Shown here piece by piece: positions 1-45,739 of a DNA stretch of 46,987 bases. The stretch lies in the IMG/VR virus record IMGVR_UViG_2526164667_000034; one strand, written 5' to 3'. The position numbers were made by a program, and so were the translations under genes. This DNA is from a virus. Its lineage: Duplodnaviria; Heunggongvirae; Uroviricota; Caudoviricetes. Each line of letters starts with the position of its first letter. Position 1 is the stretch's first letter. The notes beneath the pieces were generated by a model. It searched no databases and had not been told where the DNA came from. It worked only from the letters and a program-made list of their open reading frames with translations.

Positions 1-1158
1 ATGCTCACCGTTAAGCAGATTGAAGCAGCAAAGCCGAAAGAAAAACCATACCGCCTTCTCGATGGTAATGGCCTGTACCTTTATGTTCCTGTATCCGGGA
101 AAAAGGTATGGCAGCTTCGCTACAAGATTGACGGTAAGGAGAAAATCCTGACCGTCGGAAAATATCCGCTAATGACTTTGCAGGAGGCAAGGGATAAGGC
201 ATGGACTGCGAGGAAAGACATCTCGGTTGGCATCGATCCGGTAAAGGCGAAAAAGGCTTCGTCTAACAACAATTCCTTTAGTGCGATTTACAAGGAATGG
301 TACGAGCACAAGAAGCAAGTATGGTCAGTAGGGTATGCGACTGAACTTGCAAAAATGTTTGATGACGACATTTTGCCTATCATCGGCGGCCTTGAAATTC
401 AGGATATTGAGCCGATGCAACTGCTGGAAGTAATCCGCAGATTTGAAGATCGCGGTGCAATGGAGCGAGCAAATAAAGCCCGCAGAAGATGCGGCGAGGT
501 TTTCCGTTACGCTATTGTCACCGGCAGGGCTAAATATAACCCGGCACCTGACCTTGCTGACACCATGAGGGGATACCGCAAGAAGAACTTCCCGTTTCTT
601 CCTGCAGACCAGATCCCGGCATTCAATAAAGCACTGGCAACATTTTCAGGAAGTATCGTATCGCTCATTGCCACCAAGGTTTTACGCTACACAGCCCTAA
701 GAACAAAAGAGCTTCGTTCCATGCAATGGAAGAACGTCGATTTTGAAAACAGGATTATCACCATTGACGCCAATGTGATGAAGGGACGCAAAATTCATGT
801 TGTCCCGATGTCGGACCAGGTGGTTGAACTTCTCACTACGTTAAGCTCCATCACCAAACCAGTATCAGAATTTGTTTTTGCCGGGCGCAACGATAAGAAG
901 AAGCCAATCTGCGAGAACGCGGTGCTACTTGTGATCAAACAAATCGGCTATGAGGGTCTGGAAAGCGGTCACGGATTCAGGCATGAATTCAGCACGATTA
1001 TGAACGAGCACGAATGGCCTGCTGACGCTATTGAAGTGCAACTGGCACATGCCAACGGCGGATCTGTGCGCGGTATTTACAACCATGCTCAGTATCTCGA
1101 TAAGCGCAGAGAAATGATGCAATGGTGGGCGGACTGGCTTGATGAAAAGGTGGAGTGA
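1..1158 (+). CDS. int: Tyrosine integrase, P4 family (IntS-like, argW-integrating type)
   Basis: 385-aa ORF from the track. N-terminal arm-binding region plus C-terminal catalytic domain (HGFRHEF, RGIYNHAQY). Recalled as close to E. coli CPS-53 IntS; not verified by search. Lies at the prophage end opposite attR. Confidence 0.9.
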   Translation: MLTVKQIEAAKPKEKPYRLLDGNGLYLYVPVSGKKVWQLRYKIDGKEKILTVGKYPLMTLQEARDKAWTARKDISVGIDPVKAKKASSNNNSFSAIYKEWYEHKKQVWSVGYATELAKMFDDDILPIIGGLEIQDIEPMQLLEVIRRFEDRGAMERANKARRRCGEVFRYAIVTGRAKYNPAPDLADTMRGYRKKNFPFLPADQIPAFNKALATFSGSIVSLIATKVLRYTALRTKELRSMQWKNVDFENRIITIDANVMKGRKIHVVPMSDQVVELLTTLSSITKPVSEFVFAGRNDKKKPICENAVLLVIKQIGYEGLESGHGFRHEFSTIMNEHEWPADAIEVQLAHANGGSVRGIYNHAQYLDKRREMMQWWADWLDEKVE

Positions 1159-1402
1159 ACCACCTTAACCACTATCGAAGTGCACAAAGCCTTGCAATCC
1201 AGTGCAAAGCTTGTGTGTCTTAGATTTCAGGGTTGCTTTCTTAGGCGTACAGGTTAATGAAATGCATCAAAATACCATTCACATCCACCTCACCCAGTAC
1301 TTCATAACCAACTGTTATCAGTGTATTTCCTCTCAGTTTGGTAAAGTGACAACCCTATGAGTACGAAATCGGTTAGGTGCTATCTGGCTATTGCTCTATT
1401 TA

Positions 1403-2545
1403 TCAAGGTGCTTCTCTAACGGATTCAGTTTTAATTGAAGATACATCTGATTTTTTTTGCATTCTACGAGCGATGGCATGCCCTATGGATACTGATGGTT
1501 TTTCAATAAAGTTATAAGATATGATTGATATAATAAAAGTAGCGCAAATCATAGCTAGAAAAACACCAAATCCTTTACTATCCAATACCCCGTACGGTTT
1601 GAGATATAAAACAGCAAGACTGTATACAACCATATGATTAATGTAAAGTGAATAGGATATTTCACCAACATACGTTAGAATTTTATTTCTATATACATCC
1701 CTACACTTAGAAATAAGGACTATTGGGGCTATAATCATAAATGAATAAGCCCCCCATGCTACAATTCCAGGTCCATTCCTTAACCCTAGGCATAAAAAAA
1801 GCAAGGCAATCGCTAATGTAATATTAAGAAATTGAACAACAGGCATTTTATTTATAAGTCTAGAAGGTAGCCTAATGTAGGCCTCTGCAATAATCATCCC
1901 CAAAATAAAGTCATATATTATTGGATTTGATACAAATACCAGATTACGAATAATTCCATCACCAGATGGCGGTTGCGCGATAGGATTTAGAAAAACATCT
2001 CCGTGAAAGTACAGTTGACCAAGAACGCAAATAATGATGAGAAGAAATGATGCGATCGCAGTTCTATATTTATGGCTGATGCATAATGAAAAAAAGAAAA
2101 CCACATAGAACCAAATTTCATACGTTAGTGTCCATGCAGGTATTATTATACTATAACCTGACCATGGCCCTATAAAATTATAGTCAATTGGTATGAGCAA
2201 GTAGCTCTTTATTATTTGTGATGATGTATATATTGCCTCATAGTTGAGGTATATAGCCAGAGTAAGGATTATAAAGTAAACAGGGTACAACCTAAAAAAA
2301 CGCTTAGCAGCAAACACCATTGGCCGGTTTTTTGCCTTATTCATTGAAGAATAAGTAATGATAAATCCACTTATAACAAAGAATATATCAACACCAACCT
2401 CACCTATACCAAAAAGAATGTCGCCCAAGTCCTTTTGGGCATACACTCCATTTAAATATACTCTAAAGTGAAACGCAATGACTAGAAGTACCGCGATCCC
2501 TCTAAGGACTTGAATAGAGTCTAACTTATTTGTTTTTCTTTCCAT
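1403..2545 (-). CDS. Acyltransferase family 3 membrane protein, putative O-antigen O-acetyltransferase (lysogenic conversion)
   Basis: 380-aa ORF, multi-TM, with N-terminal motif LRGIAVLLVIAFHF typical of OafA/Oac acyltransferases. Very AT-rich (roughly 32% GC). Sits between int and tailspike, where P22-like and Shigella phages carry serotype-converting genes. Confidence 0.75.
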   Translation of the reverse strand: MERKTNKLDSIQVLRGIAVLLVIAFHFRVYLNGVYAQKDLGDILFGIGEVGVDIFFVISGFIITYSSMNKAKNRPMVFAAKRFFRLYPVYFIILTLAIYLNYEAIYTSSQIIKSYLLIPIDYNFIGPWSGYSIIIPAWTLTYEIWFYVVFFFSLCISHKYRTAIASFLLIIICVLGQLYFHGDVFLNPIAQPPSGDGIIRNLVFVSNPIIYDFILGMIIAEAYIRLPSRLINKMPVVQFLNITLAIALLFLCLGLRNGPGIVAWGAYSFMIIAPIVLISKCRDVYRNKILTYVGEISYSLYINHMVVYSLAVLYLKPYGVLDSKGFGVFLAMICATFIISIISYNFIEKPSVSIGHAIARRMQKKSDVSSIKTESVREAP

Positions 2546-2615: not shown

Positions 2616-4489
2616 TTAAAAGTTTCCCTCTGATAAGAAAGAATAGGTTCCTGGCCCACCTGGAATATTGCATGTCCATGCCTTTGGTTGTCCTGAAGCA
2701 GGTGCGCTATTGATAACACGCTCACCTATATCCCAGAAACCGGATGTAGGTACTGACGAAAGATAAAATGTTGTTTTTTCAACTTGCAACGCGTTTGATG
2801 GCATTCCATATGCACATAGAGAAGGTGAGTTTATGAGTACATTTCCTGAACCATAATTTCTTATACCAACATTTATAGCTGTATCAGTTTCGTATATATA
2901 CACACCACAACTAACATAGCTCCATTTCCCATTACCAGCTAAAGGTGCTGTAGAGTCTGTTTGTCCTGCACCATTAATTATAAACATAAGTTTTGACGCT
3001 GATCCCTGGTCATTGACCCACGCACCAAACCATACAAATTTCCCTTTTAGTTCTGGTGATTTGTTGAGGTCTATCGTTCGTCCCCAAACTCTATCTCCTG
3101 TCGTAACTAAGAATGAATAATTACCAGCATAGATGTTTTGAGTTTTTATCAATGTTCCTGTAGTTCCAGATGCCGCAGTCCAGAGCAACATATTTCGATC
3201 AAGATAGTTAGCAGTTAACTCTCTGTTCGCAATATCTATTAAATGCGCAGTGTCAGGGTTTTGTGTCGCCGGGTCATAACTACCAACGTATCCGATGGAG
3301 TTCACTGTGTTGTTGGCAAGATATAGCCTGTCAGTAACTTTGGACGAAAGATTATTGTGGTACATTGCTAATAAATTATTCACTTTCGATGCGTCTAATA
3401 ACTGATTATTTTCAATCGTCAGGTTTTTCGCATAGTTCGTGAAAATAAATCCGTCTTGGTTAGGTAGCGCGCTGGCGTAGCCAATCGCGGTCTGCTGATT
3501 CCCGCGAATAGATACGGTATCATTAATTTTTGAAAGGTCAGGAATTAATGTAAAATTGTTCGCGATAAGGTGGATATCCGCACGTACTGTAATAGACTCA
3601 GGTACTCTATACTGGTAACCAATCTCACCGTTGCGTTCCCAATAGTTATCATCAAGGTTAAGGCCTTTAACCCCGTAAGCCAAAAGTCCGTAGAACTTAT
3701 TTTGCTCTATATTGTTGCCATTAACTCTGACGCTCATACCGCCCTCAGCGTAAGCTGGCGTAAGTAAAACTCCACCGGCTCCGTTACCATAGATACGGCT
3801 GTTGATTATATTAATATTATTGCAGTAACCACCAACATTAATACCGTTACCGGCGTTTTGAAACAACCGGCACCCAATGATGTCAATGGAGTAACCGTTA
3901 ACTAATATTGCGTTGTTATTAGTATTAACCACGTCAATATTTTCTATTTTAATGTGGTTGGCTTCAGTAAGACTGATGCCGTTAGCTGCGTAGCCATTTC
4001 CGTCAAGACCAAAGTCCCTGAACTCGCAGAACGTAATTACCCCATCTTGTTGCGTGATTATCGGTGCCGCTGTACCCGTAGAGAAAATTCTGGACTGATA
4101 TGCGCCAGCACCTCGTATCATGGTGACAGTATTCTTAATCGTAATACCAGGGTCAACAATGAACGCCCCCTCTGGTATAACAATCTCAGTTGGCAACGTA
4201 GCATCATCAATAGCCTTCTGAAATGCAGCTTTGTTCTGAGCACCGGTGTTTCCCTCAGCAAACCCGTAGTCTGTAAGCGTCCTCAGGTCGATAGTTAGCT
4301 TTTTTGAGAGAATGGTCGATGTGCTATCGACAAACTGTGGGTTATGCATGACTAGAGAGTCGCCAAGTGAGTGATCTTCGCTCAGGAGATTGCCCTTAAA
4401 CTGATCTGGATCATACTTTAGCACATTCGGAAAATAGAACTGCTGCGCACCGTATGCATCATAAACAGCCATAGAATGGCCTTGCACAG
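2616..4489 (-). pseudogene. Tailspike, C-terminal receptor-binding part (gene interrupted by IS2)
   Basis: Track ORF 2616..4517; its first 9-10 codons (MSGDSGGQS) are translated IS2 terminal sequence. The genuine part starts at [11 protein letters not shown], which continues the P22 gp9 head-binding domain. The long Asn/Gly-rich body fits a beta-helix tailspike and is not P22-like. Confidence 0.85.
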
Positions 4490-27710: not shown

Positions 27711-28148
27711 TTATTTCAGGCACTGAGTCCTGATGTACTCCTGCAGGTAGTTAACCTGCGCGGTTATCCTGTCGATTCCACTTCGGAGACGGTAATAATT
27801 GAGTTCAGCATCTGCTGTAAGTCTTGGGCTTTCTCCATCGCCCATGCTGCTGGCTCCGGTCGTTGACTTTGCACAGGTGGCGGCGACTTGCAGGCGCTTA
27901 CGACCAGCAGAAACATCAGCACGAAGGCTTTCGATAGTAGCGTTAGCATCAGCAAGCTCCTTTGTGTATCTGGCGTCGAGTTCTGCTACATCACGTTGAC
28001 GCTTCTGCATATCAGCGATGATGGATGTGGCTTTATCGCGCTGCTCTTTGTAGGTCATGGCGTTATCACGGTAATGATTAACAGCCCATGACAGGCAGAC
28101 GATGATGCAGATAACCAGAGCGGAGATAATCGCGGTGACTCTGCTCAT
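27711..28148 (-). CDS. Rz: Spanin, inner-membrane subunit Rz
   Basis: 145-aa ORF with N-terminal TM and coiled coil, downstream of endolysin; lambda-type lysis cassette. Confidence 0.85.
27764..27955 (-). CDS. Rz1: Spanin, outer-membrane lipoprotein subunit Rz1 (embedded in Rz, +1 frame)
   Basis: 63-aa ORF entirely inside Rz; lipobox LVVSAC followed by a Pro-rich segment. Confidence 0.75.
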
Positions 28149-28621
28149 ACCTCAATCTCTCTGACCGTTCCGCCCGCTTCTTTGAATTTTGCAATCAGGC
28201 TGTCAGCCTTATGCTCGAACTGACCATAACCAGCGCCCGGCAGTGAAGCCCAGATATTGCTGCAACGGTCGATTGCCTGACGAATATCACCGCGATCAAT
28301 CATCGGCAAAGCGCCACGCTCTTTAATCTGCTGCAGCGCAACAGCGTCCTGGCTTTTGGGAGAGAAGTCTTTCAGGCCAAGCTGCTTACGATAGGCATCC
28401 CACCAACGGGAAAGAAGCTGGTAACGTCCGGCGGCTGTTGATTTGAGTTTTGGGTTTAGCGTGACAAGTTTGCGAGGATGATCGGAGTAATCAGTGAATA
28501 GCTCTCCGCCAACAATGACGTCATAACCATGATTTCTGGTTTTCTGCCGTCCATTATCTGTTCCCTCTGACCACGCCAGCATATCGAGGAACGCCTTGCG
28601 TTGATTATTGATTTCCACCAT
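28145..28621 (-). CDS. R: Endolysin, lambda R-type lytic transglycosylase
   Basis: 158 aa [39 protein letters not shown]..., recalled as near-identical to lambda R. Confidence 0.95.
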
Positions 28622-28928
28622 CTTCTACTCCGGCTTTTTTAGCAGCGAAGCGTTTGATAAGCGAACCAATCGAGTCAGTACCGATGTAGCCGATGAACAC
28701 GCTCGTTATATAAGCGAGATTGCTACTTAGTCCGGCGAAGTCGAGAAGGTCACGAATGAACCAGGCGATAATGGCACACATCGTTGCGTCGATTACTGTT
28801 TTTGTAAACGCACCGCCATTATATCTGCCGCGAAGGTACGCCATTGCAAACGCAAGGATTGCCCCGATGCCTTGTTCCTTTGCCGCGAGAATAGCGGCTA
28901 ACAGGTCATGTTTTTCTGGCATCTTCAT
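28605..28928 (-). CDS. S: Holin, lambda S-type (dual-start MKM motif)
   Basis: 107 aa [41 protein letters not shown]..., recalled as near-identical to lambda S107/S105. Confidence 0.95.
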
Positions 28929-29732
28929 GTCTTACCCCCAGAAGGGGATCTGTTCAAATTAGGAATTATGGATATGGTCGCTTGAACAAATCCGGGTTAC
29001 GGTTGATTTGTAACGGGTTTGTTCGTGACCGCATTCATGAGCAAATCAGGCGTGGATTGCGCCAACAATACATGCCGCTCATATCACGAAGCCCAGCCAT
29101 TGATGCTGGGTTTTCTTTTTTAAAGCGTACTAGACAACCGTATCCACAGAGTGTCAGCAATGAGTTGGTTAGGTCTGGTTCTTGGTGGAAGTACGCTTTA
29201 AAAAATGGGCTGAGGGTGTAGCACAAAATACTGAGTGAATGGTAAGGATGAACAACGGTTTTGCTCTGGGTGGATTTGGCTGTGGTGGCCGGCGCTGATC
29301 TCCGGCTTGTATACAGGCACCTTGTTCTTCCGAAGCTCTCCTGCGCGCATCAGCCTGCGCATTCACCACACCGGAAAGAGCACTCAGTTGTACCGGCCAG
29401 TTGTGCCACTAAGAAATGCTTTCGCAGACCGTTAAGCTCTTTGCCAGTTCTTTAATGCTCTTACCTGTTGTGTGCCCATTATTAATCACACCGGGCCAGT
29501 GCGCCGAATTTGTTTACAAGGAGTCGGAAGACTTTGCTGACTTACAGGCTATTACGCCGCCATCAGAACAACATCATCGTTTGCATTTATCTTTGTGGTC
29601 AGTTTCTAAAAAACCGCAAAGTCGCCAACTCTGACGAAAACTATCGTTGTGCTGCCACAACGATAAGAGCACTCGGTGCATTTAAGCCAAGCCCCATAAG
29701 GGAGAATGCTCTTACCTGTTACACAGATATAA

Positions 29733-29790
29733 AAAATCCCGAAACCGTTATGCAGGCTCTAACTATTACCTGCGAACTGTTTCGGGATTG
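29733..29790 (-). terminator. tR'-like terminator (end of 6S-type pR' leader RNA)
   Basis: Minus-strand sequence ...CCCGAAACAGTTCGCAGG...GCCTGCATAACGGTTTCGGGATTTTTTAT matches the lambda tR' hairpin plus U-run as recalled. Confidence 0.8.
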
Positions 29791-29929
29791 CATTTTGCAG
29801 ACCTCTCAGCCTGCGATGGTTGGAGTTCCAGACGATACGTCGAAGTGACCAACTAGGCGGAATCGGTAGTAAGCGCCGCCTCTTTTTATCTCACTACCAC
29901 AACGAGCGAATTAACCCATCGTTGGGTCA

Positions 29930-29958
29930 AATTTACCCAACTTTATTCAATAAGTCAA
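29930..29958 (-). promoter_or_regulatory. Late promoter pR' with overlapping qut region
   Basis: Minus strand TTGACT-17 bp-TAAATT, about 45 bp downstream of the Q stop, matching lambda pR' as recalled. Confidence 0.8.
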
Positions 29959-30000
29959 TATCATGCCGTTAATATGTTGCCATCCGTGGCAATCATGCTG

Positions 30001-30624
30001 CTAACGTGTGACCGCGTTCAAAATGTTGTCTGCGATTGACTCTTCCTTGTGGCATTGCACCACCAGAGCGTCATACAGCGGCTTAACAGTGCGTGACCAG
30101 GTGGGTTGAGTAAGGTTTGGGATTAGCATCGTTACAGCGCGATATGCGGCACTTGCTGGCATCCTTGAATAGCCGACGCCTTTGCATCTTCCGCACTCTT
30201 TCTCAACAACTCTCCCCCACTGCTCTGTTTTTGCTATATCAACCGCACGGCCTGTACCGTGACAATCTCTGCATCTTGCGCCCGGCGTCGCGGCACTACG
30301 GCAATAATCCGCATAAGCGAATGTTGCGAGCACTTGCAGTACCTTTGCCTTAGTATTTCCTTCAAGCTTTGCCACGCCACGGTATTTCCCCGATACCTTG
30401 TGTGCAAATTGCATCAGATAGTTGATAGCCTTTTGTTTGTCGTTCTGGCTGAGTTCATGCTTACCGCAGAATGCAGCCATTCCGAATCCGGCTTGTGATT
30501 GCGCCATCCCCATAGCAGCCATCACATCAGTACCGGAAAGAGAGTCAGAAGCCGTAGCCCGTGGTGAGTCACTCATCATCGGGCTTTTTGGCGAATGAAA
30601 TTTAGCTACGCTTTCGAGTCTCAT
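30001..30624 (-). CDS. Q: Late antiterminator Q (lambda-type)
   Basis: 207 aa MRLESVAKFHSPKSPMMSDSPRATASDSLSGTDVMAAMG... with zinc-binding CRDCHG...CGRCKG, recalled as near-identical to lambda Q. Confidence 0.95.
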   Translation of the reverse strand: MRLESVAKFHSPKSPMMSDSPRATASDSLSGTDVMAAMGMAQSQAGFGMAAFCGKHELSQNDKQKAINYLMQFAHKVSGKYRGVAKLEGNTKAKVLQVLATFAYADYCRSAATPGARCRDCHGTGRAVDIAKTEQWGRVVEKECGRCKGVGYSRMPASAAYRAVTMLIPNLTQPTWSRTVKPLYDALVVQCHKEESIADNILNAVTR

Positions 30625-30809
30625 CGTCTTCCCTTTTTGCCTGGCGTGACCATCAGGACGCCGTTAACTATTACGTGACGCTCGCCTTTGCTGTCTCGGT
30701 TGTACTTGAGCACTGTTCCTCTTGCGCAGGAAAGCATCCTTGCCACTTCGGTCTGATTTCCTCGTGTCTGGATAAGAAGCTCTGGTATCGTTTGAATTGT
30801 GGCGTTCAT
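30621..30809 (-). CDS. ninH: NinH-like protein
   Basis: 62-aa ORF with ...GNQTEVAR...RGTV.KY...IVN.VLMV motif shared with lambda NinH; directly upstream of Q. Confidence 0.75.
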   Translation of the reverse strand: MNATIQTIPELLIQTRGNQTEVARMLSCARGTVLKYNRDSKGERHVIVNGVLMVTPGKKGRR

Positions 30810-31168
30810 ACGTTCTCCAGTTCGGTGATTTTTATTCCAAGCCTTCCGCCTGGTACTTTCACTCCACGAATTACGCGAATGTCATCGAATTGCTCGTCGT
30901 CTTCCGCAAATCCGGCGTGGATAAGTGAGTCGAGTAAACCTTTCAGGATGTTATCGAGGTCGCGGCGGCGGGAGTCTGGAACGTCTGCGATTACTTTGAT
31001 GCGGAGTCGTGATTTGGTGAAAATGTCTAACTTGAGTTGGCGGATGATTTTCTGAACGTCTTTTCGGTATTTCTGGCCTTTATCGCTGATGTAGTATTGG
31101 CTTCCCCGTCTTCGCCAGTAGGTATTCACCGACGGCGGGTATGGAAGCACAAACTGATATTCGTTCAT
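30806..31168 (-). CDS. rusA: Holliday-junction resolvase RusA
   Basis: 120-aa ORF; LPYPPSVNTYW, catalytic-region DSRRRDLDNILKGLLD and GGRLGIKITEL resemble E. coli RusA. Confidence 0.85.
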   Translation of the reverse strand: MNEYQFVLPYPPSVNTYWRRRGSQYYISDKGQKYRKDVQKIIRQLKLDIFTKSRLRIKVIADVPDSRRRDLDNILKGLLDSLIHAGFAEDDEQFDDIRVIRGVKVPGGRLGIKITELENV

Positions 31169-43669: not shown

Positions 43670-44016
43670 TTAATCGAACCAAACTGGAGCACATCCTCGA
43701 GTATGCCAGGCAGCAGAGGCGCTTTGGCCAGCTTTGTAAAATTCTGCCAGGAGATATGGTTGAAATCGTGGAGATTGCCATGCGTAAGACTGGCAACTCT
43801 CCGGTAAGTCCGGGTGGTTGGATAAGCTGTAGTGAGCGAATGCCCGCTCAAGATGATTGGATTTTAATTTATTCAAAGCACGGTGAGTATATGGCAGGAC
43901 AGGTACAAGAGGAATACGTGGAGTTGAGCGACGGCACTTTATCGTGGTTAGGGAACGCCTTGTACTGGATGCTGCTACCAGAACCGCCGCAGGGAGTGAA
44001 TGATGAATTGGCCTGA
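43666..44016 (+). CDS. DUF551-like phage protein
   Basis: 116-aa ORF; ...WISCSERMP...DGTLSW...ALYWMLLPEPP matches the conserved DUF551 C-terminal pattern as recalled. Confidence 0.6.
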   Translation: MINRTKLEHILEYARQQRRFGQLCKILPGDMVEIVEIAMRKTGNSPVSPGGWISCSERMPAQDDWILIYSKHGEYMAGQVQEEYVELSDGTLSWLGNALYWMLLPEPPQGVNDELA

Positions 44017-44084
44017 AGCATTCACCGCTGTAGGAGTTGCAATCGCGGTGGCATTTATTCTGTATTCGCTTTTCCGCTGGGGAT
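43997..44084 (+). CDS. Very small hydrophobic peptide (about 28 aa)
   Basis: Hand-translated MMNWPEAFTAVGVAIAVAFILYSLFRWG; single TM. Below track threshold; speculative. Confidence 0.25.
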
Positions 44085-44090
44085 AAAGGA

Positions 44091-44333
44091 ATGTTCGCTC
44101 TGATTCAACGTGGTCAGATATACACCGATAGCGCCGGCTACCCGATAAAAATTCTTCGCTGCATAAACAACACTGTGTTGTACAGAAGAATGGATGGGCG
44201 AACACAGTCGGTAAAAATAAACGATTTTAATGAACTGTTTGAACGGATCGATCACCAGGAATACCGACAAATTCTGGCTGAAACAGAGCAGGAGAACCAT
44301 CTGAAAAAATTACGCGCCATGCAAAGGAGATAA
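44091..44333 (+). CDS. Hypothetical protein
   Basis: Track ORF 44037..44333; start chosen at MFALIQRGQIY with AAGGAATG context. Confidence 0.45.
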   Translation: MFALIQRGQIYTDSAGYPIKILRCINNTVLYRRMDGRTQSVKINDFNELFERIDHQEYRQILAETEQENHLKKLRAMQRR

Positions 44334-44450
44334 ACCGGTAAAGGTGTTCGCGATAAAGGTGAATATCGGCAATGAATAACAATCCTCGCACTGACGGGGA
44401 TTTCTTTTATCTGAACTCGCTACGGCGAGTTTTGTTTTATGGAGATGATT

Positions 44451-44750
44451 ATGGCCTGTTCAACATTCAACCCTTTAACGTTACAGAAATACCAGCCAGA
44501 CCCTGAAGATTTATGCTCACTGTGTGGCGGAAATCATGGTAAAGCTGCCATGATCGAATGTAAGGACAAAATCCACATATGCCTTAATTGCGTTGATGTC
44601 CTCGTTGATATCAAAAATGAAAGAGAAGATAAAAAGCGTAGCGAGGCTATTCGCGCCTTAGATTCATGGATGCGAGATGGGTATAGTGCTGCGCAAATTT
44701 ATGACTTAGCCATTTCAAAAGGCGAAATACCAGGTGTGCGAATCGAATAA
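44451..44750 (+). CDS. Hypothetical Cys-rich (zinc-binding-like) protein
   Basis: Track ORF 44439..44750; start at MACSTF with GGAG RBS. Cys pattern C..CGG...C...C..C. Confidence 0.5.
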   Translation: MACSTFNPLTLQKYQPDPEDLCSLCGGNHGKAAMIECKDKIHICLNCVDVLVDIKNEREDKKRSEAIRALDSWMRDGYSAAQIYDLAISKGEIPGVRIE

Positions 44751-44770
44751 GAAGCGCACTCAAGCATCTT

Positions 44771-44953
44771 TTGGGGAAATCACAAATGCACTTCCGAGTC
44801 ACAGGTGAATTGAATGGAGAACCATTCAACAGAGTTATCGAAGCAGAGGACATCAACGACTGCTATGACCACTGGATGATATGGGCGCAGATAGCACATG
44901 CAGACGTAACCAATATTCGAATTGAAGAACTGAAAGAACACCAAGCCGCCTGA
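44771..44953 (+). CDS. Small hypothetical protein
   Basis: 60-aa track ORF (possible internal start MHFRV) ending in a terminator hairpin. Confidence 0.35.
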   Translation: MGKSQMHFRVTGELNGEPFNRVIEAEDINDCYDHWMIWAQIAHADVTNIRIEELKEHQAA

Positions 44954-44968
44954 TGGCGGTTTTTTATT
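44945..44968 (+). terminator. Rho-independent terminator upstream of xis
   Basis: GCCGCC-TGATG-GCGGT hairpin followed by TTTTTTATT. Confidence 0.7.
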
Positions 44969-45010
44969 GCCTGATTTGCAGGTTCGATTCCCTATTCGGA
45001 GATAGCACTC

Positions 45011-45211
45011 ATGCAACACGAACTACAACCTGATTCACTGGTTGATTTGAAATTCATCATGGCTGATACTGGCTTTGGTAAAACCTTCATCTACGACCGG
45101 ATTAAGTCCGGCGACCTGCCTAAAGCCAAAGTTATCCACGGTCGAGCAAGATGGTTATATCGTGACCATTGTGAATTCAAAAATAAGCTCTTAAGCCGCG
45201 CTAATGGGTAA
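45011..45211 (+). CDS. xis: Excisionase / AlpA-family DNA-binding protein
   Basis: 66-aa ORF; ...LKFIMADTGFGKTFIYDRIKSGDLPKAKVIHGRARW... is a typical AlpA/Xis winged-helix motif. Last phage gene before attR. Confidence 0.75.
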   Translation: MQHELQPDSLVDLKFIMADTGFGKTFIYDRIKSGDLPKAKVIHGRARWLYRDHCEFKNKLLSRANG

Positions 45212-45284
45212 AATAGCGGGTAAAATATTTCTCACATCTAAAAAATACCATTCTAATCAATCCCCTGCCACTCTAAGTAGATGT

Positions 45285-45299
45285 CTGCAGGGGACACCA
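45285..45299 (+). other. attR core: 15-bp copy of the tRNA-Arg (argW) 3' end
   Basis: CTGCAGGGGACACCA equals the 3' acceptor/T-arm end of argW as recalled. Upstream sequence diverges from the tRNA, so this is the partial copy. Exact core extent not determinable from one junction. Confidence 0.6.
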
Positions 45300-45739
45300 G
45301 ATACCCTTCAAACGAAATCTACCTTCACCCCGTAAAAGATAGGTTTGGCAGCACACTTGCCTTATATCTACTCATTTTTACTGCAACAGGTTGAAATCTC
45401 AGCACTGTCAGAAAGCGCTGATGACTAAACAGCCCTGGGCCGGGCGATGTAACCATCACACAGAATCCTGATAGCGAAATATGGCGTGACTCGATACTTC
45501 ACTCCGCAATGCATTCCTTGATGAATTCGCAGGACCGTGATACACGGGACAGGTCGCTGAATGACGACAATGTCCTGGAAATCAGCGAACCGCGCATCTG
45601 AAGTACATTTGAGCGACTGTACCAGAACATGAATGAGGCGTTTGGATTAGGTGATTATTAGCAGGGCTAAGCACTTTAGTATTATTATTTTCCGGTTGAG
45701 GGATAGGGAGATATCGACAACAACCGGAAAAGTTTACGT

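Follow-up and report, generated by a model that had tools for sequence, protein, structure and literature searches.

Since the 1990s, phage growth (for example, of lambda-immP22 hybrids, P22, and Mu) has been linked genetically to tmRNA, the universal ribosome-rescue RNA of bacteria, with no phage-encoded player known. To our knowledge, there is no natural RNA that docks on tmRNA or replaces its message. One-piece tmRNA (SsrA, RF00023) is a 363-nt molecule in which the acceptor stem, T-arm, and CCA are joined to a pseudoknot (PK1), a 10-residue tag frame, and three downstream pseudoknots. The coding piece of two-piece (permuted) tmRNA (RF04321 and RF01850), also known from phages (locus L006), carries a tag frame without a complete tRNA-like domain; the 5' acceptor strand is at its start, and its pairing partner is an acceptor piece from the same precursor. 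The mycobacteriophage DS6A encodes a CDS-less tmRNA, consisting of the tRNA-like domain only, which, in the account cited in PMC11915505, is reported to inhibit host tmRNA. Another set of RNAs, PasA, PasC, PasD, and STnc100 (PMC8550237; bioRxiv 10.64898/2026.05.13.724894) and the anti-sRNAs AgvB and AsxR, occupies the Q-to-holin slot of lambdoid prophages in pathogenic Escherichia coli. These are 80- to 240-nt Hfq-dependent mRNA regulators or sRNA sponges that base-pair with host RNAs, and none has a reading frame or a tmRNA target. Here, we describe the same slot in a lambdoid prophage contained in 46,987 nt of phage DNA (the window).

Layout of the tR'-to-S interval

The interval between tR' and S spans ca. 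800 nt in this prophage, and its features are read on the minus strand, that is, in the sense of the late transcript (Table 1). Its upstream boundary is the tR' hairpin with its U-run. By blastn, window positions 30631 to 29705 matched lambda 43878 to 44805 at 97% identity, the homology stopping directly after AACAGGTAAGAGCATT at 29705; from there on, the window has 674 nt (29705 to 29031) where lambda has 273 nt (44805 to 45078). Both the length of ca. 800 bp and the excess of ca. 400 bp over lambda given in an earlier note on this DNA are thus borne out. Homology to lambda, at 93 to 97%, covers Q, pR', the 6S RNA, tR', a single hairpin module, and the leader of S. The tag unit, module B, unit 2, and the 16-bp inverted-repeat hairpin have no counterpart in lambda. 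The alignment to lambda that the note had proposed as a check gave a divided answer: one copy of the hairpin module is present in lambda itself (44787 to 44868), and the extra 400 nt are not.

Table 1. Features of the interval and its borders, in window coordinates
Feature	Positions	Strand	Basis
Q	30624..30001	minus	
tR' terminator hairpin and U-run, end of lambda-like 6S RNA	29731..29789	minus	Inverted repeat I3; 97% lambda identity
Hairpin module A: stem AACAGGUAAGAGCAUU / GAGUGCUCUUAUCGUU around insert CUCCCUUAUGGGGCUUGGCUUAAAUGCACC	29652..29726	minus	Fold of -29.5 kcal/mol, z = -3.65
Small hairpin UAUCGUUGUG-GCAG-CACAACGAUA, then UUUUCG	29641..29666	minus	Inverted repeat I13; scored terminator-like
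Antisense arm AUAGUUUUCGUCAGAGUUGGCGACUUUGCGGUUUUUUAGAAACUGACCACA	29594..29644	minus	Imperfect reverse complement of host tmRNA nt 54-107
Single-stranded spacer AAGAUAAAU ahead of resume codon	29585..29593	minus	Direct sequence reading
tmRNA-type tag frame GCA AAC GAU GAU GUU GUU CUG AUG GCG GCG UAA UAG (ANDDVVLMAA, two stops)	29549..29584	minus	Weak Rfam matches; 116-copy comparison
H5-like hairpin (CUGA...UCAG) around last tag codons and stops	29537..29566	minus	Covariation; RNAalifold
Pseudoknot A: stem CAAAG/CCUUG; loop CCGA pairs with downstream UCGG	29504..29536	minus	Two helices, 98.7% and 100% paired
Pseudoknot B: CGCACU/GGUGUG interleaved with GCCC/GGGC, invariant loop UGUGAUUAAUAA	29474..29503	minus	Covariation
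Hairpin module B: stem of module A (CACACAACAGGUAAGAGCAUU / GAGUGCUCUUUCCGGUGUG), unrelated 72-nt insert	29367..29474	minus	Repeat families D1, D3, and I8; fold
Unit 2, cloverleaf-shaped RNA: GGUGUGGUG/CACCACAGCC stem closing three hairpins	29278..29372	minus	Folds
16-bp perfect inverted repeat, long hairpin with 58-nt loop	29116..29205	minus	Inverted repeat I1; z = -3.57
Hairpin CCCAGC...GCUGGG	29088..29124	plus	Terminator-like call on plus strand
Lambda-like S leader: GAACAAA...UUUGUUC hairpin and AUCCCC...GGGGGU stem directly before S start codon	28934..29024	minus	92.7% identity to lambda 45078-45513
S start	28928	minus	

The absence of a convincing ORF and of a tRNA-like T-arm, both stated in the earlier note, held under database searches: the six longest ORFs of the interval had no Pfam or PHROG match, ARAGORN found no tRNA or tmRNA in the window, and PGAP annotates nothing between Q and the holin gene in an identical E. 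coli chromosome. Protein coding was therefore set aside on the grounds of these unmatched ORFs and of the lack of conservation of an AUG frame that overlaps the tag; in the ordinary sense, the interval is noncoding. The suggestion of structured RNA in what in Stx phages is a tRNA slot proved apt, as the interval is rich in conserved RNA structure. Its main feature, a tmRNA-type tag frame and pseudoknots between the hairpin modules with an antisense arm ahead, had been overlooked.

Two motifs that the note had reported in two copies each, as imperfect reverse complements able to form hairpins, were recovered as such. AACAGGTAAGAGCATT occurs exactly twice (29454 to 29469 and 29705 to 29720; 0.04 expected in window shuffles, with two or more copies in 0 of 100), as does GAGTGCTCTTWYCGKTGTGG (29366 to 29385 and 29655 to 29674; 0.00 expected); they pair as inverted repeats I8 and I12, and module A folds stably (Table 1). 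The 65-nt module A recurs on ca. 264 P1-like plasmids, immediately 3' of tRNA-Thr, and its insert is found in FelixO1, with a compensated stem, 3' of the tag unit. HK620 has module B as well, at 96% identity. Stem variants covary within modules, including the relatives of module B. The interval is highly mosaic, with recombination joints located at module boundaries. We infer that the flanking modules would act as processing signals and recombination boundaries, roles that would account for the insertion of the cassettes relative to lambda. Where module A gives way to the arm, a small hairpin takes in the last bases of the former and the first of the latter, and it may serve in processing or pausing. 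Overall, the interval is a mosaic array of phage noncoding RNA cassettes bounded by conserved long hairpin modules.

Downstream of module B, unit 2 folds into a four-way junction in both the minimum-energy and the centroid structures (z of only -1.1), with GCCA located 3' of a core 7-bp pairing, UGUGGUG/CACCACA. It has neither a canonical D-loop nor a T-loop, and ARAGORN and Rfam gave no tRNA (RF00005) match for unit 2 or the module inserts. It follows the layout of the STnc100/PasD 5' domain (GGUG-AAU-hairpin...CCGG-loop-CCGG-CACC), a likeness in layout only: the STnc100 model (RF02076) had no match in window positions 28000 to 31000 at an E value of ≤10, and it matched related cassettes with 48.7 bits (L070; threshold, 47) and 38 bits (P1-like L003). 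Identity with the Pas sRNAs of enteropathogenic E. coli was rejected, as blastn found no similarity between the window and the PasD2-PasA region of E2348/69. Further downstream, the perfect inverted repeat reported earlier as 15 bp is present and is 16 bp long (29116 to 29131 and 29190 to 29205); the hairpin is kept with other arms (GAAAGCACUCUA / UAGAGUGCUG) in a diverged sequence type (L021/L075). The adjoining CCCAGC...GCUGGG stem covaries among relatives (CCCGC/GCGGG) and reads on the plus strand as an intrinsic terminator (GAAGCCCAGCCAUUGAUGCUGGGUUUUCUUUUUU) for transcripts opposing the late operon. Both blocks of the S leader, the second of which we take to be the lambda sdi structure, are kept in all three sequence types.

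The tag frame and its downstream structures

The core cassette (29474 to 29645, minus strand) resembles the mRNA-like half of tmRNA. The tag frame has no start codon; it opens with an Ala resume codon in the context AUAAAU-GCA, runs for 10 codons to a hydrophobic or Ala-rich C terminus, and ends in a stop. GCA as the resume codon, U at -5, and A at -4 (U85 and A86 of E. coli tmRNA) are features shared with one-piece tmRNA, as is a 10-residue AND... tag with small or hydrophobic residues at its end (-L-x-A/V-A). In 116 of 116 copies, the frame consists of 10 codons plus a stop, with 26 distinct ORF sequences encoding 15 peptides of the form A-N-[DE]-x-x-x-L-x-[AV]-A. The terminal Ala is specified by GCA, GCC, GCG, and GCU, Leu by CUG and UUG, and all three stop codons occur. 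Codon changes are synonymous or conservative, and the other two frames are not conserved. The predicted tags of other carriers include ANEEMYLAVA (HK620), ANDDLMMVAA (P1), and ANDNVFLAVA (FelixO1). At the level of sequence comparison, this pattern shows that the tag frame is under codon-level constraint. The phage tags deviate from the host tag exactly at codons 3 to 6, which are among the positions targeted by the arm.

In tmRNA, the stop lies inside the H5 hairpin and is followed by H-type pseudoknots. The phage cassette has the same order, with two H-type pseudoknots supported by covariation instead of three and a total length of ca. 170 nt. The H5-like helix was 100% paired, with four of four pairs changed on both sides (for instance, G-C in 26 and A-U in 19), and the same helix was predicted by RNAalifold. 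In pseudoknot A, compensatory sets were found for the stem (CAAGG/CCUUG, UGAGG/CCUCA, CGGGG/CCCCG, and CAUGG/CCAUG) and for the loop pairing (CCGA/UCGG, CCAG/CUGG, and CCAA/UUGG); the copy in the window has one A.C mismatch. In pseudoknot B, one helix pair takes three forms (C-G in 32, G-C in 7, and U-A in 7), and stem 2 has nine sequence versions of 4 to 8 bp, all complementary, in 45 of 46 sequences. Across the 26 pairs considered, 94.7% were paired and 15 had compensatory changes, a result equaled in none of 500 shuffles and far from the 28 to 45% of slid controls. The Rfam matches were confined to the tag region and stayed below the gathering thresholds of the tmRNA models (scores of 10 to 27 bits): the best, although weak, were to permuted tmRNA models (tmRNA_permuted, 26.3 bits, E = 0.0098, threshold of 47; beta_tmRNA, 16.3 bits, threshold of 84), and tmRNA scored ca. 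10 to 12 bits (threshold of 47).

Phage records with a relative of the tag unit, the family being defined by BLAST and pattern scans, number 719 and span at least six families; further copies lie in 137 E. coli chromosomes and on 587 P1-like plasmids. None of these is annotated. Carriers include P1, FelixO1, Det7, HK620, and Vi1-like and N4-like phages, and the element is 70 to 95% identical among phages that belong to several families and are in part virulent, in part temperate. Several contexts have no lysis genes nearby, namely, the tRNA arrays of FelixO1 and Det7, the C1-controlled ban operon of P1, and phage C1, where the element is a stand-alone gene; function thus cannot depend on the lambda late operon. 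In phage C1, a consensus sigma-70 promoter ends 8 nt ahead of the arm, and in FelixO1 the arm lies ca. 90 nt from a predicted transcript start. No promoter of its own was predicted for the tag RNA in the window, where it lies inside the long late transcript, so its 5' end depends on a putative processing step. The literature that we searched, whose coverage is incomplete, contained no description of this RNA, and an earlier one may exist.

The arm and its predicted host target

The stretch ahead of the tag is imperfectly complementary to a defined part of host tmRNA (nt 54 to 107), which takes in the spacer, the resume codon, and the first six codons in addition to the 3' part of PK1. The arm of the window and E. 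coli K-12 ssrA gave a predicted duplex of -49.4 kcal/mol with 42 bp (RNAduplex), against -32.1 ± 3.4 for shuffles (0 of 1,000 as good; z of about -5), although pairing with nt 54 to 78 needs the host PK1 to be opened, a cost outside the folding model. Among 34 distinct leaders, the median duplex was -44.2 kcal/mol and the target was always ca. nt 54 to 107 of tmRNA. Base composition adds to these energies, as reversed decoys reached ca. -28 kcal/mol for 36-nt arms, for which the real median was -35. Local alignment of the first 36 nt of the arm with the perfect antisense gave scores of 11 to 19 (null, 6.9 ± 1.5), and in 34 of 34 leaders, pairing with the downstream part of the same RNA was weaker than pairing with host tmRNA. 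Arm substitutions stay wobble compatible with the fixed target GUCGC (GCGAC to GUGGC, GCGGC, or GCGAU), and divergent arm types recover complementarity to AAAAAAUAGUCGC. Extended complementarity is thus conserved among homologues, beyond both chance and self-pairing. As predicted pairing, this shows that the first ca. 50 nt of the phage RNA are an antisense copy of host tmRNA nt 54 to 107.

The host target is nearly invariant across Enterobacterales, from E. coli to Aeromonas, and the "Vibrio" phage pYD38-A has an arm of the E. coli type. In Salmonella, tmRNA (GAA ACC) has one internal mismatch with the invariant arm segment GUUUUCGU, and this single A-to-C difference is uncompensated: the FelixO1 arm pairs at -27.2 with E. 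coli tmRNA and at -22.5 with Salmonella tmRNA, so that Salmonella phages are not adapted, which counts slightly against covariation between phage arm and host tmRNA. No conserved intramolecular structure of the PK1 type was predicted in the 5' 60 nt of the unit. In the phage RNA, the single-stranded antisense arm takes the place of PK1, and the predicted duplex would supply a structured element ca. 10 to 11 nt 5' of the resume codon, as in one-piece tmRNA: in 31 of 34 leaders, this duplex stops 10 nt short of GCA, compared with an 11-nt spacer from PK1 to GCA in the host.

The tRNA-like half is missing. ARAGORN and Rfam found no tRNA-like domain (acceptor stem with G3.U70, T-arm, and 3' CCA) in the window or in the loci of enterobacterial phages, 120 or more in total, so the phage RNA would not be alanylated alone. 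A manual scan for a T-arm and an acceptor stem with G3.U70 and CCA retrieved only a tRNA-like element of FelixO1, which is D-armless and of Ala identity, with G3.U70, A73, and CCA, ca. 170 nt downstream of the tag. In the window, only tR' and module A lie upstream of the unit, and neither a T-arm nor CCA is present there. Phage C1 carries no tRNA, tmRNA, or clear T-arm candidate anywhere in its genome, and its promoter abuts the unit where a permuted tmRNA would have the acceptor piece. A 17-mer, AAGAUAAAUGCAAACGA, is common to the phage RNA and a genuine permuted phage tmRNA. Unlike the permuted coding piece, however, the phage RNA has no acceptor piece, and its sequence-predicted partner is complete host tmRNA. 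As far as DS6A is described in the cited account, its RNA resembles the present one in being a phage-encoded partial tmRNA thought to interfere with host trans-translation and represents the opposite half, with the tRNA-like domain kept and the tag and antisense arm absent. A recurrent GCUCC-ACGAAAC-GGAGC (after CAGCUCCAC) considered as a tmRNA 3' end proved to be a covarying local hairpin (GCCAC/GUGGC) that is absent from the window.

Possible roles of the tag RNA

The reading that we prefer is that a ca. 170-nt RNA forms the core of the interval, that it descends from the mRNA-like half of tmRNA and has no tRNA-like domain of its own, and that by docking on host tmRNA it replaces the host tag with one specified by the phage; taken jointly, we give these propositions an even chance. 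Read-through of tR' in lytic growth would produce the phage RNA, whose predicted 5' end after processing is at or near (G)AUAGUUUUCG. The arm would then anneal to host tmRNA, invading PK1 and masking the resume codon together with codons 1 to 6 of the host tag, and the intermolecular helix would end ca. 10 nt upstream of the phage resume codon, mimicking the PK1-spacer-GCA geometry of the host. Host SmpB and the alanylated tRNA-like domain would carry the hybrid into stalled ribosomes, where the phage frame would be translated, and the C terminus of rescued proteins would be (A)ANDDVVLMAA in place of (A)ANDENYALAA. This docking model is inferred from computation alone, and we know of no precedent for a ribosome resuming on a template merely base-paired to tmRNA at the resume site.

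The RNA might instead be a pure antisense inhibitor that blocks or destroys host tmRNA, for instance, by RNase III cleavage of the ca. 40-bp duplex, for which a long imperfect duplex is a plausible substrate, and thereby shuts down tagging in infection. No part of the RNA is better conserved than the arm, which spans the resume codon and codons 1 to 6, as an inhibitor would have it, and the CDS-less tmRNA of DS6A, as cited in PMC11915505, would be a precedent. The tag-like frame and the pseudoknots would then be untranslated inherited baggage or a protein-binding mimic. However, the constraint on the tag (10 codons, synonymous third positions, three stops, and the form A-N-[DE]...L-x-[AV]-A), the conserved resume context, and the stop-codon hairpin would all be superfluous for an antisense role, and we consider this reading unlikely. 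Less probable still is a self-contained phage tmRNA, two-piece or permuted, that obtains a cryptic acceptor from insert-excised modules or neighboring tRNA-like elements and needs no host tmRNA. Permuted tmRNAs do exist in phages (L006) and gave the weak Rfam matches, FelixO1 has its tRNA-like element downstream of the tag, most modules would have a G.U pair at position 3:70 after removal of the insert, and the 3' strand of the upstream module adjoins AGUUUUCGUC, which resembles the tmRNA D-loop GGUUUCGAC. Yet many modules have C-G or U-A in place of the G.U pair, the module stem is not followed by CCA, the tag RNA of phage C1 has its own promoter and no module upstream, and AGUUUUCGUC is more readily read as complementary to host codons 3 to 6; for these reasons, we dropped, as the main model, the idea that the modules are permuted acceptor stems from which the inserts are excised. 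The lack of a tRNA-like domain in 120 or more loci also speaks against self-sufficiency, the tRNA-like neighbors vary between phage families and are missing from some, and the complementarity of the arm to host tmRNA would be left unexplained.

We rate as equally improbable a cis-acting leader, in which hairpins, pseudoknots, and terminator-like elements govern how the S-R-Rz mRNA is processed or translated or how stable it is, and the likeness to tmRNA is a relic. It would fit the position of the elements ahead of the lysis genes, in their 5' leader, the conserved and covarying S-proximal hairpins, the several terminator-like hairpins, and the small RNA of P22 that ends 48 nt upstream of the holin gene (PMC13397905); the tag unit is, however, also found away from lysis genes (FelixO1, Det7, P1 ban, and C1). 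A last reading is nonfunctional mosaic DNA, in the form of a duplication or a scar of excised tRNA or toxin cargo, as considered in the earlier note. The joints at module boundaries and the end of lambda homology after AACAGGTAAGAGCATT would agree with such an origin. The two modules are alike in their stems only, with unrelated inserts, which discounts tandem duplication, and every piece is a conserved cassette present in many unrelated phages, contrary to a deletion scar. Compensatory covariation, the codon-level constraint on the tag, and the conservation across phage families already contradict this reading, the least probable by far.

Returning to docking and tag substitution, its extension to the group as a whole, namely, that many enterobacterial phages (P1, FelixO1, HK620, Vi1-like, N4-like, and lambdoid prophages) encode a ribosome-rescue parasite that pairs with host tmRNA and swaps the tag template, is more tentative, at somewhat less than an even chance. 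The element is unannotated in textbook phages (P1, FelixO1, and HK620), in hundreds of therapeutic-candidate phages, and in STEC prophages, and standard pipelines return "no tmRNA" for the genomes that carry it. The predicted tags make the hypothesis directly testable by mass spectrometry, and a base-pair-programmable change of the rescue tag would be a useful tool. Even if the antisense part alone were functional, this would be the first phage anti-tmRNA RNA. Together, the data make RNA of this type a candidate for the reprogramming of ribosome rescue by phages. If so, proteins rescued during infection would receive another C-terminal tag and hence another proteolytic fate, while ribosome recycling by SmpB and tmRNA would continue.

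Layout of the interval and its hairpin modules

The region studied is the late control region of a lambdoid prophage on the minus strand. Lambda 43878-44805 matched window 30631..29705 at 97%, and lambda 45078-45513 matched window 29031..28601 at 92.7%. Between these two matching blocks (29705 to 29031), the window contains 674 nt and lambda 273 nt, which bears out the ca. 400 nt of extra DNA estimated in the earlier note. The two motifs described there are indeed imperfect reverse complements of each other; the 47-kb window contains precisely two copies of each, against chance expectations of 0.04 and 0.00, and the perfect inverted repeat exists, with a length of 16 bp instead of the 15 bp given. 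The reported lack of tRNAs and coding capacity also held, since ARAGORN called neither tRNA nor tmRNA in the window and the six largest ORFs of the interval had no match in Pfam or PHROG. The longest mechanical ORF, likewise without family match, contains ...ANSDENY... because the 5' arm of the tag unit (see below) copies the host tag region (ANDENY) in antisense; this ORF could mislead gene callers. A sequence identical to this region is present in a bovine E. coli chromosome, in which PGAP annotates an antitermination protein, 1072 nt of unannotated DNA, and a lambda-family holin.

Coordinates of features in the window and in loci from other phages, plasmids, and contigs
Feature	Record	Position	Strand	Remarks
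Q	window	30624..30001	-	
pR'	window	about 29958..29930	-	
tR' hairpin and U-run	window	29789..29731	-	
Hairpin module A	window	29652..29726	-	
Tag unit	window	29474-29645	-	tag ANDDVVLMAA
Pseudoknot A, stem 1	window	29532-29536 / 29518-29522	-	
Hairpin module B	window	29367..29474	-	
Unit 2	window	29278-29372	-	
Longest mechanical ORF	window	29510-29848	+	112 aa
16-bp inverted repeat	window	29116-29131 / 29190-29205		
Intrinsic terminator-like hairpin (CCCAGC/GCUGGG)	window	29088-29124	+	ca. 165 nt upstream of S, oriented against the late operon
Lambda-like S leader	window	last ~100 nt of interval	-	
Holin S	window	start 28928	-	then R, Rz
Lambda hairpin module	L125 (NC_001416)	988-1069 = record 44787-44868		overlaps end of annotated 'orf-64'
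P1 tag unit	L224 (NC_005856)	1501-1680 = record 68883-69062		tag ANDDLMMVAA; unannotated
Vibrio phage pYD38-A tag unit	L222 (NC_021534)	601-777		tag ANEEMYLAVA
FelixO1 D-armless tRNA-like element	L126 (AF320576)	2694-2775		~170 nt downstream of tag; unannotated
Permuted (two-piece) tmRNA	L006 (IMG/VR UViG_3300018418_001574)	about 1150-1700		tag ANDNIAYEEFALAA; genuine
STnc100 (RF02076) match	L070, Ackermannviridae-like contig	1118-1331	-	48.7 bits
STnc100 (RF02076) match	L003, P1-like plasmid	3218-3337		38 bits
GUUGUGG/CCACAAC tRNA-like family	L086; also L012, L029, L041, L055, L069, L073, L083	around +230 to +330 from tag (L086)		
ACGAAAC-GGAGC cassette	L005, L008, L031, L055, L003	about 3040-3140 (L003)		

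Lambda has one hairpin module directly 3' of tR' (CACAACAGGTAAGAGCATT, 39 nt, AGTGCTCTTTCCGTTGTG) and lacks the extra ca. 400 nt; the alignment proposed earlier found part of the repeat structure in lambda itself. Homology of lambda with the window extends to the last base of AACAGGTAAGAGCATT (29705) and no further. The two modules of the window have the stem sequences alone in common, with unrelated inserts (30 nt versus 72 nt), so the extra DNA is not the suggested duplication. Since both strands of one module covary in relatives (AAUGGCAUU/AGUGCUAUU, AAUUGCAUU/AGUGCAAUU, and AAGCUGCUU/AGGCAGCUU), the modules are self-contained hairpins. In many phages they stand between different cassettes, with recombination joints at their edges, and HK620 matches the window at 96% from 29625 to S while differing in the upstream module and the tag. 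We infer that the modules are cassette boundaries serving as recombination linkers; they are probably RNA processing sites as well. The extra DNA, which is not the scar of a cargo deletion, would then be cassettes inserted between two such boundaries. In the unrelated siphovirus C1, the tag unit is followed by a module whose insert is almost identical to that of lambda.

A tag unit resembling the mRNA-like half of tmRNA

Permissive scanning with Rfam yielded a weak tmRNA_permuted match (26.3 bits, E = 0.0098), together with beta_tmRNA, at 29606..29552, with the tag region alone aligned. The window tag reads AUAAAU GCA AAC GAU GAU GUU GUU CUG AUG GCG GCG UAA UAG (ANDDVVLMAA), and scanning IMG/VR with the 17-mer around the resume codon retrieved at least 120 loci. 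Across 116 family copies, the frame occurred in 26 nucleotide versions, each of exactly 10 codons plus stop, encoding 15 peptides (e.g., ANEEMYLAVA, ANDDLMLMAA, ANDEQFLAVA, ANDNTFLAVA, and ANDTEFKAAA). The last Ala used all four codons, Leu7 CUG or UUG, and the stop UAA, UAG, or UGA; the other two frames showed no conservation in these copies.

Structure was analyzed in an alignment of 46 diverse copies. A hairpin encloses the last tag codons and the stop. It is accompanied by pseudoknot A, with a 5-bp stem and a loop (CCGA/CCAG/CCAA) covarying with downstream UCGG/CUGG/UUGG, and by pseudoknot B, formed by CGCA[C/G/U]U and G[G/C/A]UGUG together with an interleaved second stem that has nine versions, all complementary. 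Of all cells, 94.7% were paired, with compensatory changes in 15 of 26 pairs, while none of 500 shuffles was as good and slid controls reached 28 to 45%. Frame, hairpin, and pseudoknots match the message, helix 5, and following pseudoknots of tmRNA. In the window, stem 1 of pseudoknot A carries an A.C mismatch (CAAAG/CCUUG) where relatives, such as the near-identical locus L017 of the alignment, have CAAGG; this may be a slightly weakened allele.

By blastn, the tag unit was found in 719 of 50,697 phage records (333 at ≥80% coverage), with carriers among C1-like and Webervirus siphoviruses, Ackermannviridae (Det7 and other ~157-kb phages), Felixounavirus (FelixO1), Schitoviridae (PGN829.1), Chaseviridae (Faunus), HK620, and HK633. 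Among 5426 complete E. coli genomes, 137 carried it, in every case chromosomally, and a P1-type version was found in P1 itself and 587 PLSDB plasmids. In P1 it belongs to the C1-controlled (C1-repressed) ban operon, where it is flanked upstream by the annotated 'dicF-like region' and its terminator and downstream by tRNA-Asn and tRNA-Thr. Typically the unit sits inside or beside phage tRNA arrays, annotated as nothing or as small hypothetical proteins, and genome announcements of such phages report the absence of tmRNA. The full-text literature searched, whose coverage is incomplete so that an earlier mention elsewhere is possible, contained no description of this RNA. The interval thus holds a widespread, unannotated phage RNA; the earlier note had seen real, nonrandom structure and missed this tmRNA-like content.

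Complementarity of the 5' arm to host tmRNA

The almost invariant motif (U)AGUUUUCGU(C) of the arm, the first ~50 nt of the unit, is exactly complementary to codons 3-6 of E. coli tmRNA (GAC GAA AAC UA). Conserved blocks GCGAC and UUUGCGG complement tmRNA GUCGC (-3 to +2 around the resume codon) and CCGCAAA (3' strand of PK1), and UUUUUAG..CUGACC complements UAAAAA..GGUUGG. With ssrA of E. coli K-12 as the target, RNAduplex paired the 60-nt window leader with tmRNA 54-107 at -49.4 kcal/mol over 42 bp (shuffles, -32.1 ± 3.4; 0 of 1000 as good), all 34 distinct leaders targeted the same site (median, -44.2), and the P1 leader scored -46.3 at tmRNA 56-106, values inflated by A/U-run composition and from a model that leaves out the cost of opening PK1. 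Reversed decoys of 36-nt arms gave about -28 versus -35, clearly worse yet not negligible. Local alignment of the first 36 nt with perfect antisense of tmRNA 61-112 scored 11 to 19 (null, 6.9 ± 1.5; maximum of 15 in 2000 trials).

The details of substitution fit pairing to a fixed external target. Changes in the GCGAC block (GUGGC, GCGGC, and GCGAU) stay wobble compatible with GUCGC; two divergent arm types lost UUUGCGG..AGAAAC and gained GCGGCUGUUUUU or GUGAUUAUUUUU, both complementary to AAAAAAUAGUCGC; and the arms of P1, FelixO1, and the Erwinia phage Faunus keep the complementarity through different subsegments. The target is almost invariant across the hosts compared; Salmonella tmRNA (GAA ACC) has an uncompensated mismatch with the invariant GUUUUCGU. 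The arm pairs much less strongly with its own downstream RNA (median, -25.1; host tmRNA the better partner in 34 of 34) because it is at codons 3-6 exactly that the phage tags depart from the host tag, and cofolding the whole unit with full-length tmRNA still gained -12.5 kcal/mol. The predicted duplex stops 10 nt short of the phage GCA in 31 of 34 leaders, compared with a PK1-to-GCA spacer of 11 nt in the host. The bases U at -5 and A at -4 persist in the phage spacer; they are equivalent to U85 and A86 of E. coli tmRNA, which are determinants of frame choice. In pYD38-A, whose recorded host is a marine Vibrio, arm, tag, and promoter are almost identical to those of enterobacterial siphoviruses; the element here, or else the host on record, is unexpected.

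Neighboring RNAs and possible modes of action

Other RNAs surround the tag unit. Unit 2 folds into a cloverleaf-like four-way junction with GCCA after the core 7-bp pairing, an unexceptional fold (z = -1.1). Its layout is that of STnc100/PasD, without a match to the Rfam STnc100 model. Unit 2 looks like a degenerate relative of a tRNA-like family, not called by ARAGORN, with acceptor GUUGUGG/CCACAAC, D-arm, canonical T-arm (GGUUCGAUUCC), a 60- to 100-nt variable center, and no CCA. The 16-bp repeat forms a long hairpin, which is retained with other arm sequences in a diverged sequence type. The CCCAGC/GCUGGG hairpin next to it covaries, and its plus-strand terminator form suggests that the S leader encodes an antisense small RNA, positioned and oriented like PasA of EPEC prophages; no promoter-like site for it was found. 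STnc100 matches in tag-unit arrays link these to the STnc100/PasD family of EPEC/EHEC prophages. Another recurrent cassette (UGGGUAACAACGGGCAU..GCCUUAGUAAAUCCC...GCCGUUAGCUCC-ACGAAAC-GGAGC), absent from the window, has a covarying terminal hairpin (GCCAC/GUGGC). The Q-to-holin slot of EPEC/EHEC prophages encodes the Hfq-dependent sRNAs PasA, PasC, PasD, and STnc100 (PMC8550237; bioRxiv 10.64898/2026.05.13.724894), which share no sequence with the window interval and of which none targets tmRNA. For P22, a 2026 study (PMC13397905) describes an RNA, 'P22E', with its 3' end 48 nt upstream of holin gene 13, so stable RNAs do arise from the equivalent leader of a P22-like phage.

The tag unit is a conserved structured RNA with a constrained tmRNA-type frame, a conserved arm complementary to host tmRNA, and no tRNA-like domain. 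A self-contained tmRNA with a cryptic acceptor is an unlikely alternative. A D-armless tRNA-like element does follow the tag in FelixO1, with acceptor stem CGGGGCG/CGCCUCG, G3.U70, A73, and CCA (alanine identity), an anticodon-like loop CUUCUAA, and a 20-nt variable region (31.7 bits with the Rfam tRNA model; missed by ARAGORN). Neither such neighboring elements nor the hairpin modules, considered as permuted acceptor stems, had supporting features general across loci. ARAGORN made no valid tmRNA call in the enterobacterial-phage loci, Rfam alignments of tag-unit loci never extended past the tag region, and the complete C1 genome, in which promoter TTGACA-17-TAGATT ends 8 nt upstream of the unit, has no tRNA, tmRNA, or clear T-arm candidate. 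The sole permuted call was in an unrelated low-GC viral contig sharing the exact resume 17-mer AAGAUAAAUGCAAACGA; that tmRNA may be an evolutionary source of the phage RNA. The phage RNA would act like part of tmRNA and differs from it in lacking the tRNA-like domain and PK1 and in scoring below Rfam thresholds, and from two-piece tmRNA, whose coding piece pairs with the acceptor piece of the same precursor. It is the mirror image of the CDS-less tmRNA of phage DS6A to which PMC11915505 refers.

Junk DNA is a very unlikely reading in view of the covariation and the fixed frame length, and the unit is almost certainly a functional conserved RNA. A cis-regulatory structure, also unlikely, would suit its place in a late leader, and the same unit stands in P1 and in tRNA arrays. 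A pure anti-tmRNA antisense RNA, a less likely reading than the main one, would account for the arm, and pairing with host tmRNA is probable; the tag frame, which is very likely translated, is the part that this reading leaves aside. The best-supported reading of the sequences is a tmRNA mimic that has no tRNA-like domain and docks on host tmRNA, for which there is no known counterpart, although replacement of the host tag template is a tentative proposal, at best evenly balanced. No other promoter-like site was found near the prophage unit, which is downstream of tR', so the RNA is expected only after Q-dependent read-through, and its 5' end would be released by processing at module A or a small hairpin. 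Once docked, the arm would mask the host resume codon and tag and open PK1, the intermolecular helix standing in for PK1, and ribosomes under rescue by SmpB and the tRNA-like domain of the host would be presented with the phage resume codon. Addition of the phage tag would follow; this tag keeps the AND start and the -AA/-VA end of the host tag and replaces ENYAL, a change that may alter recognition by SspB/ClpXP.
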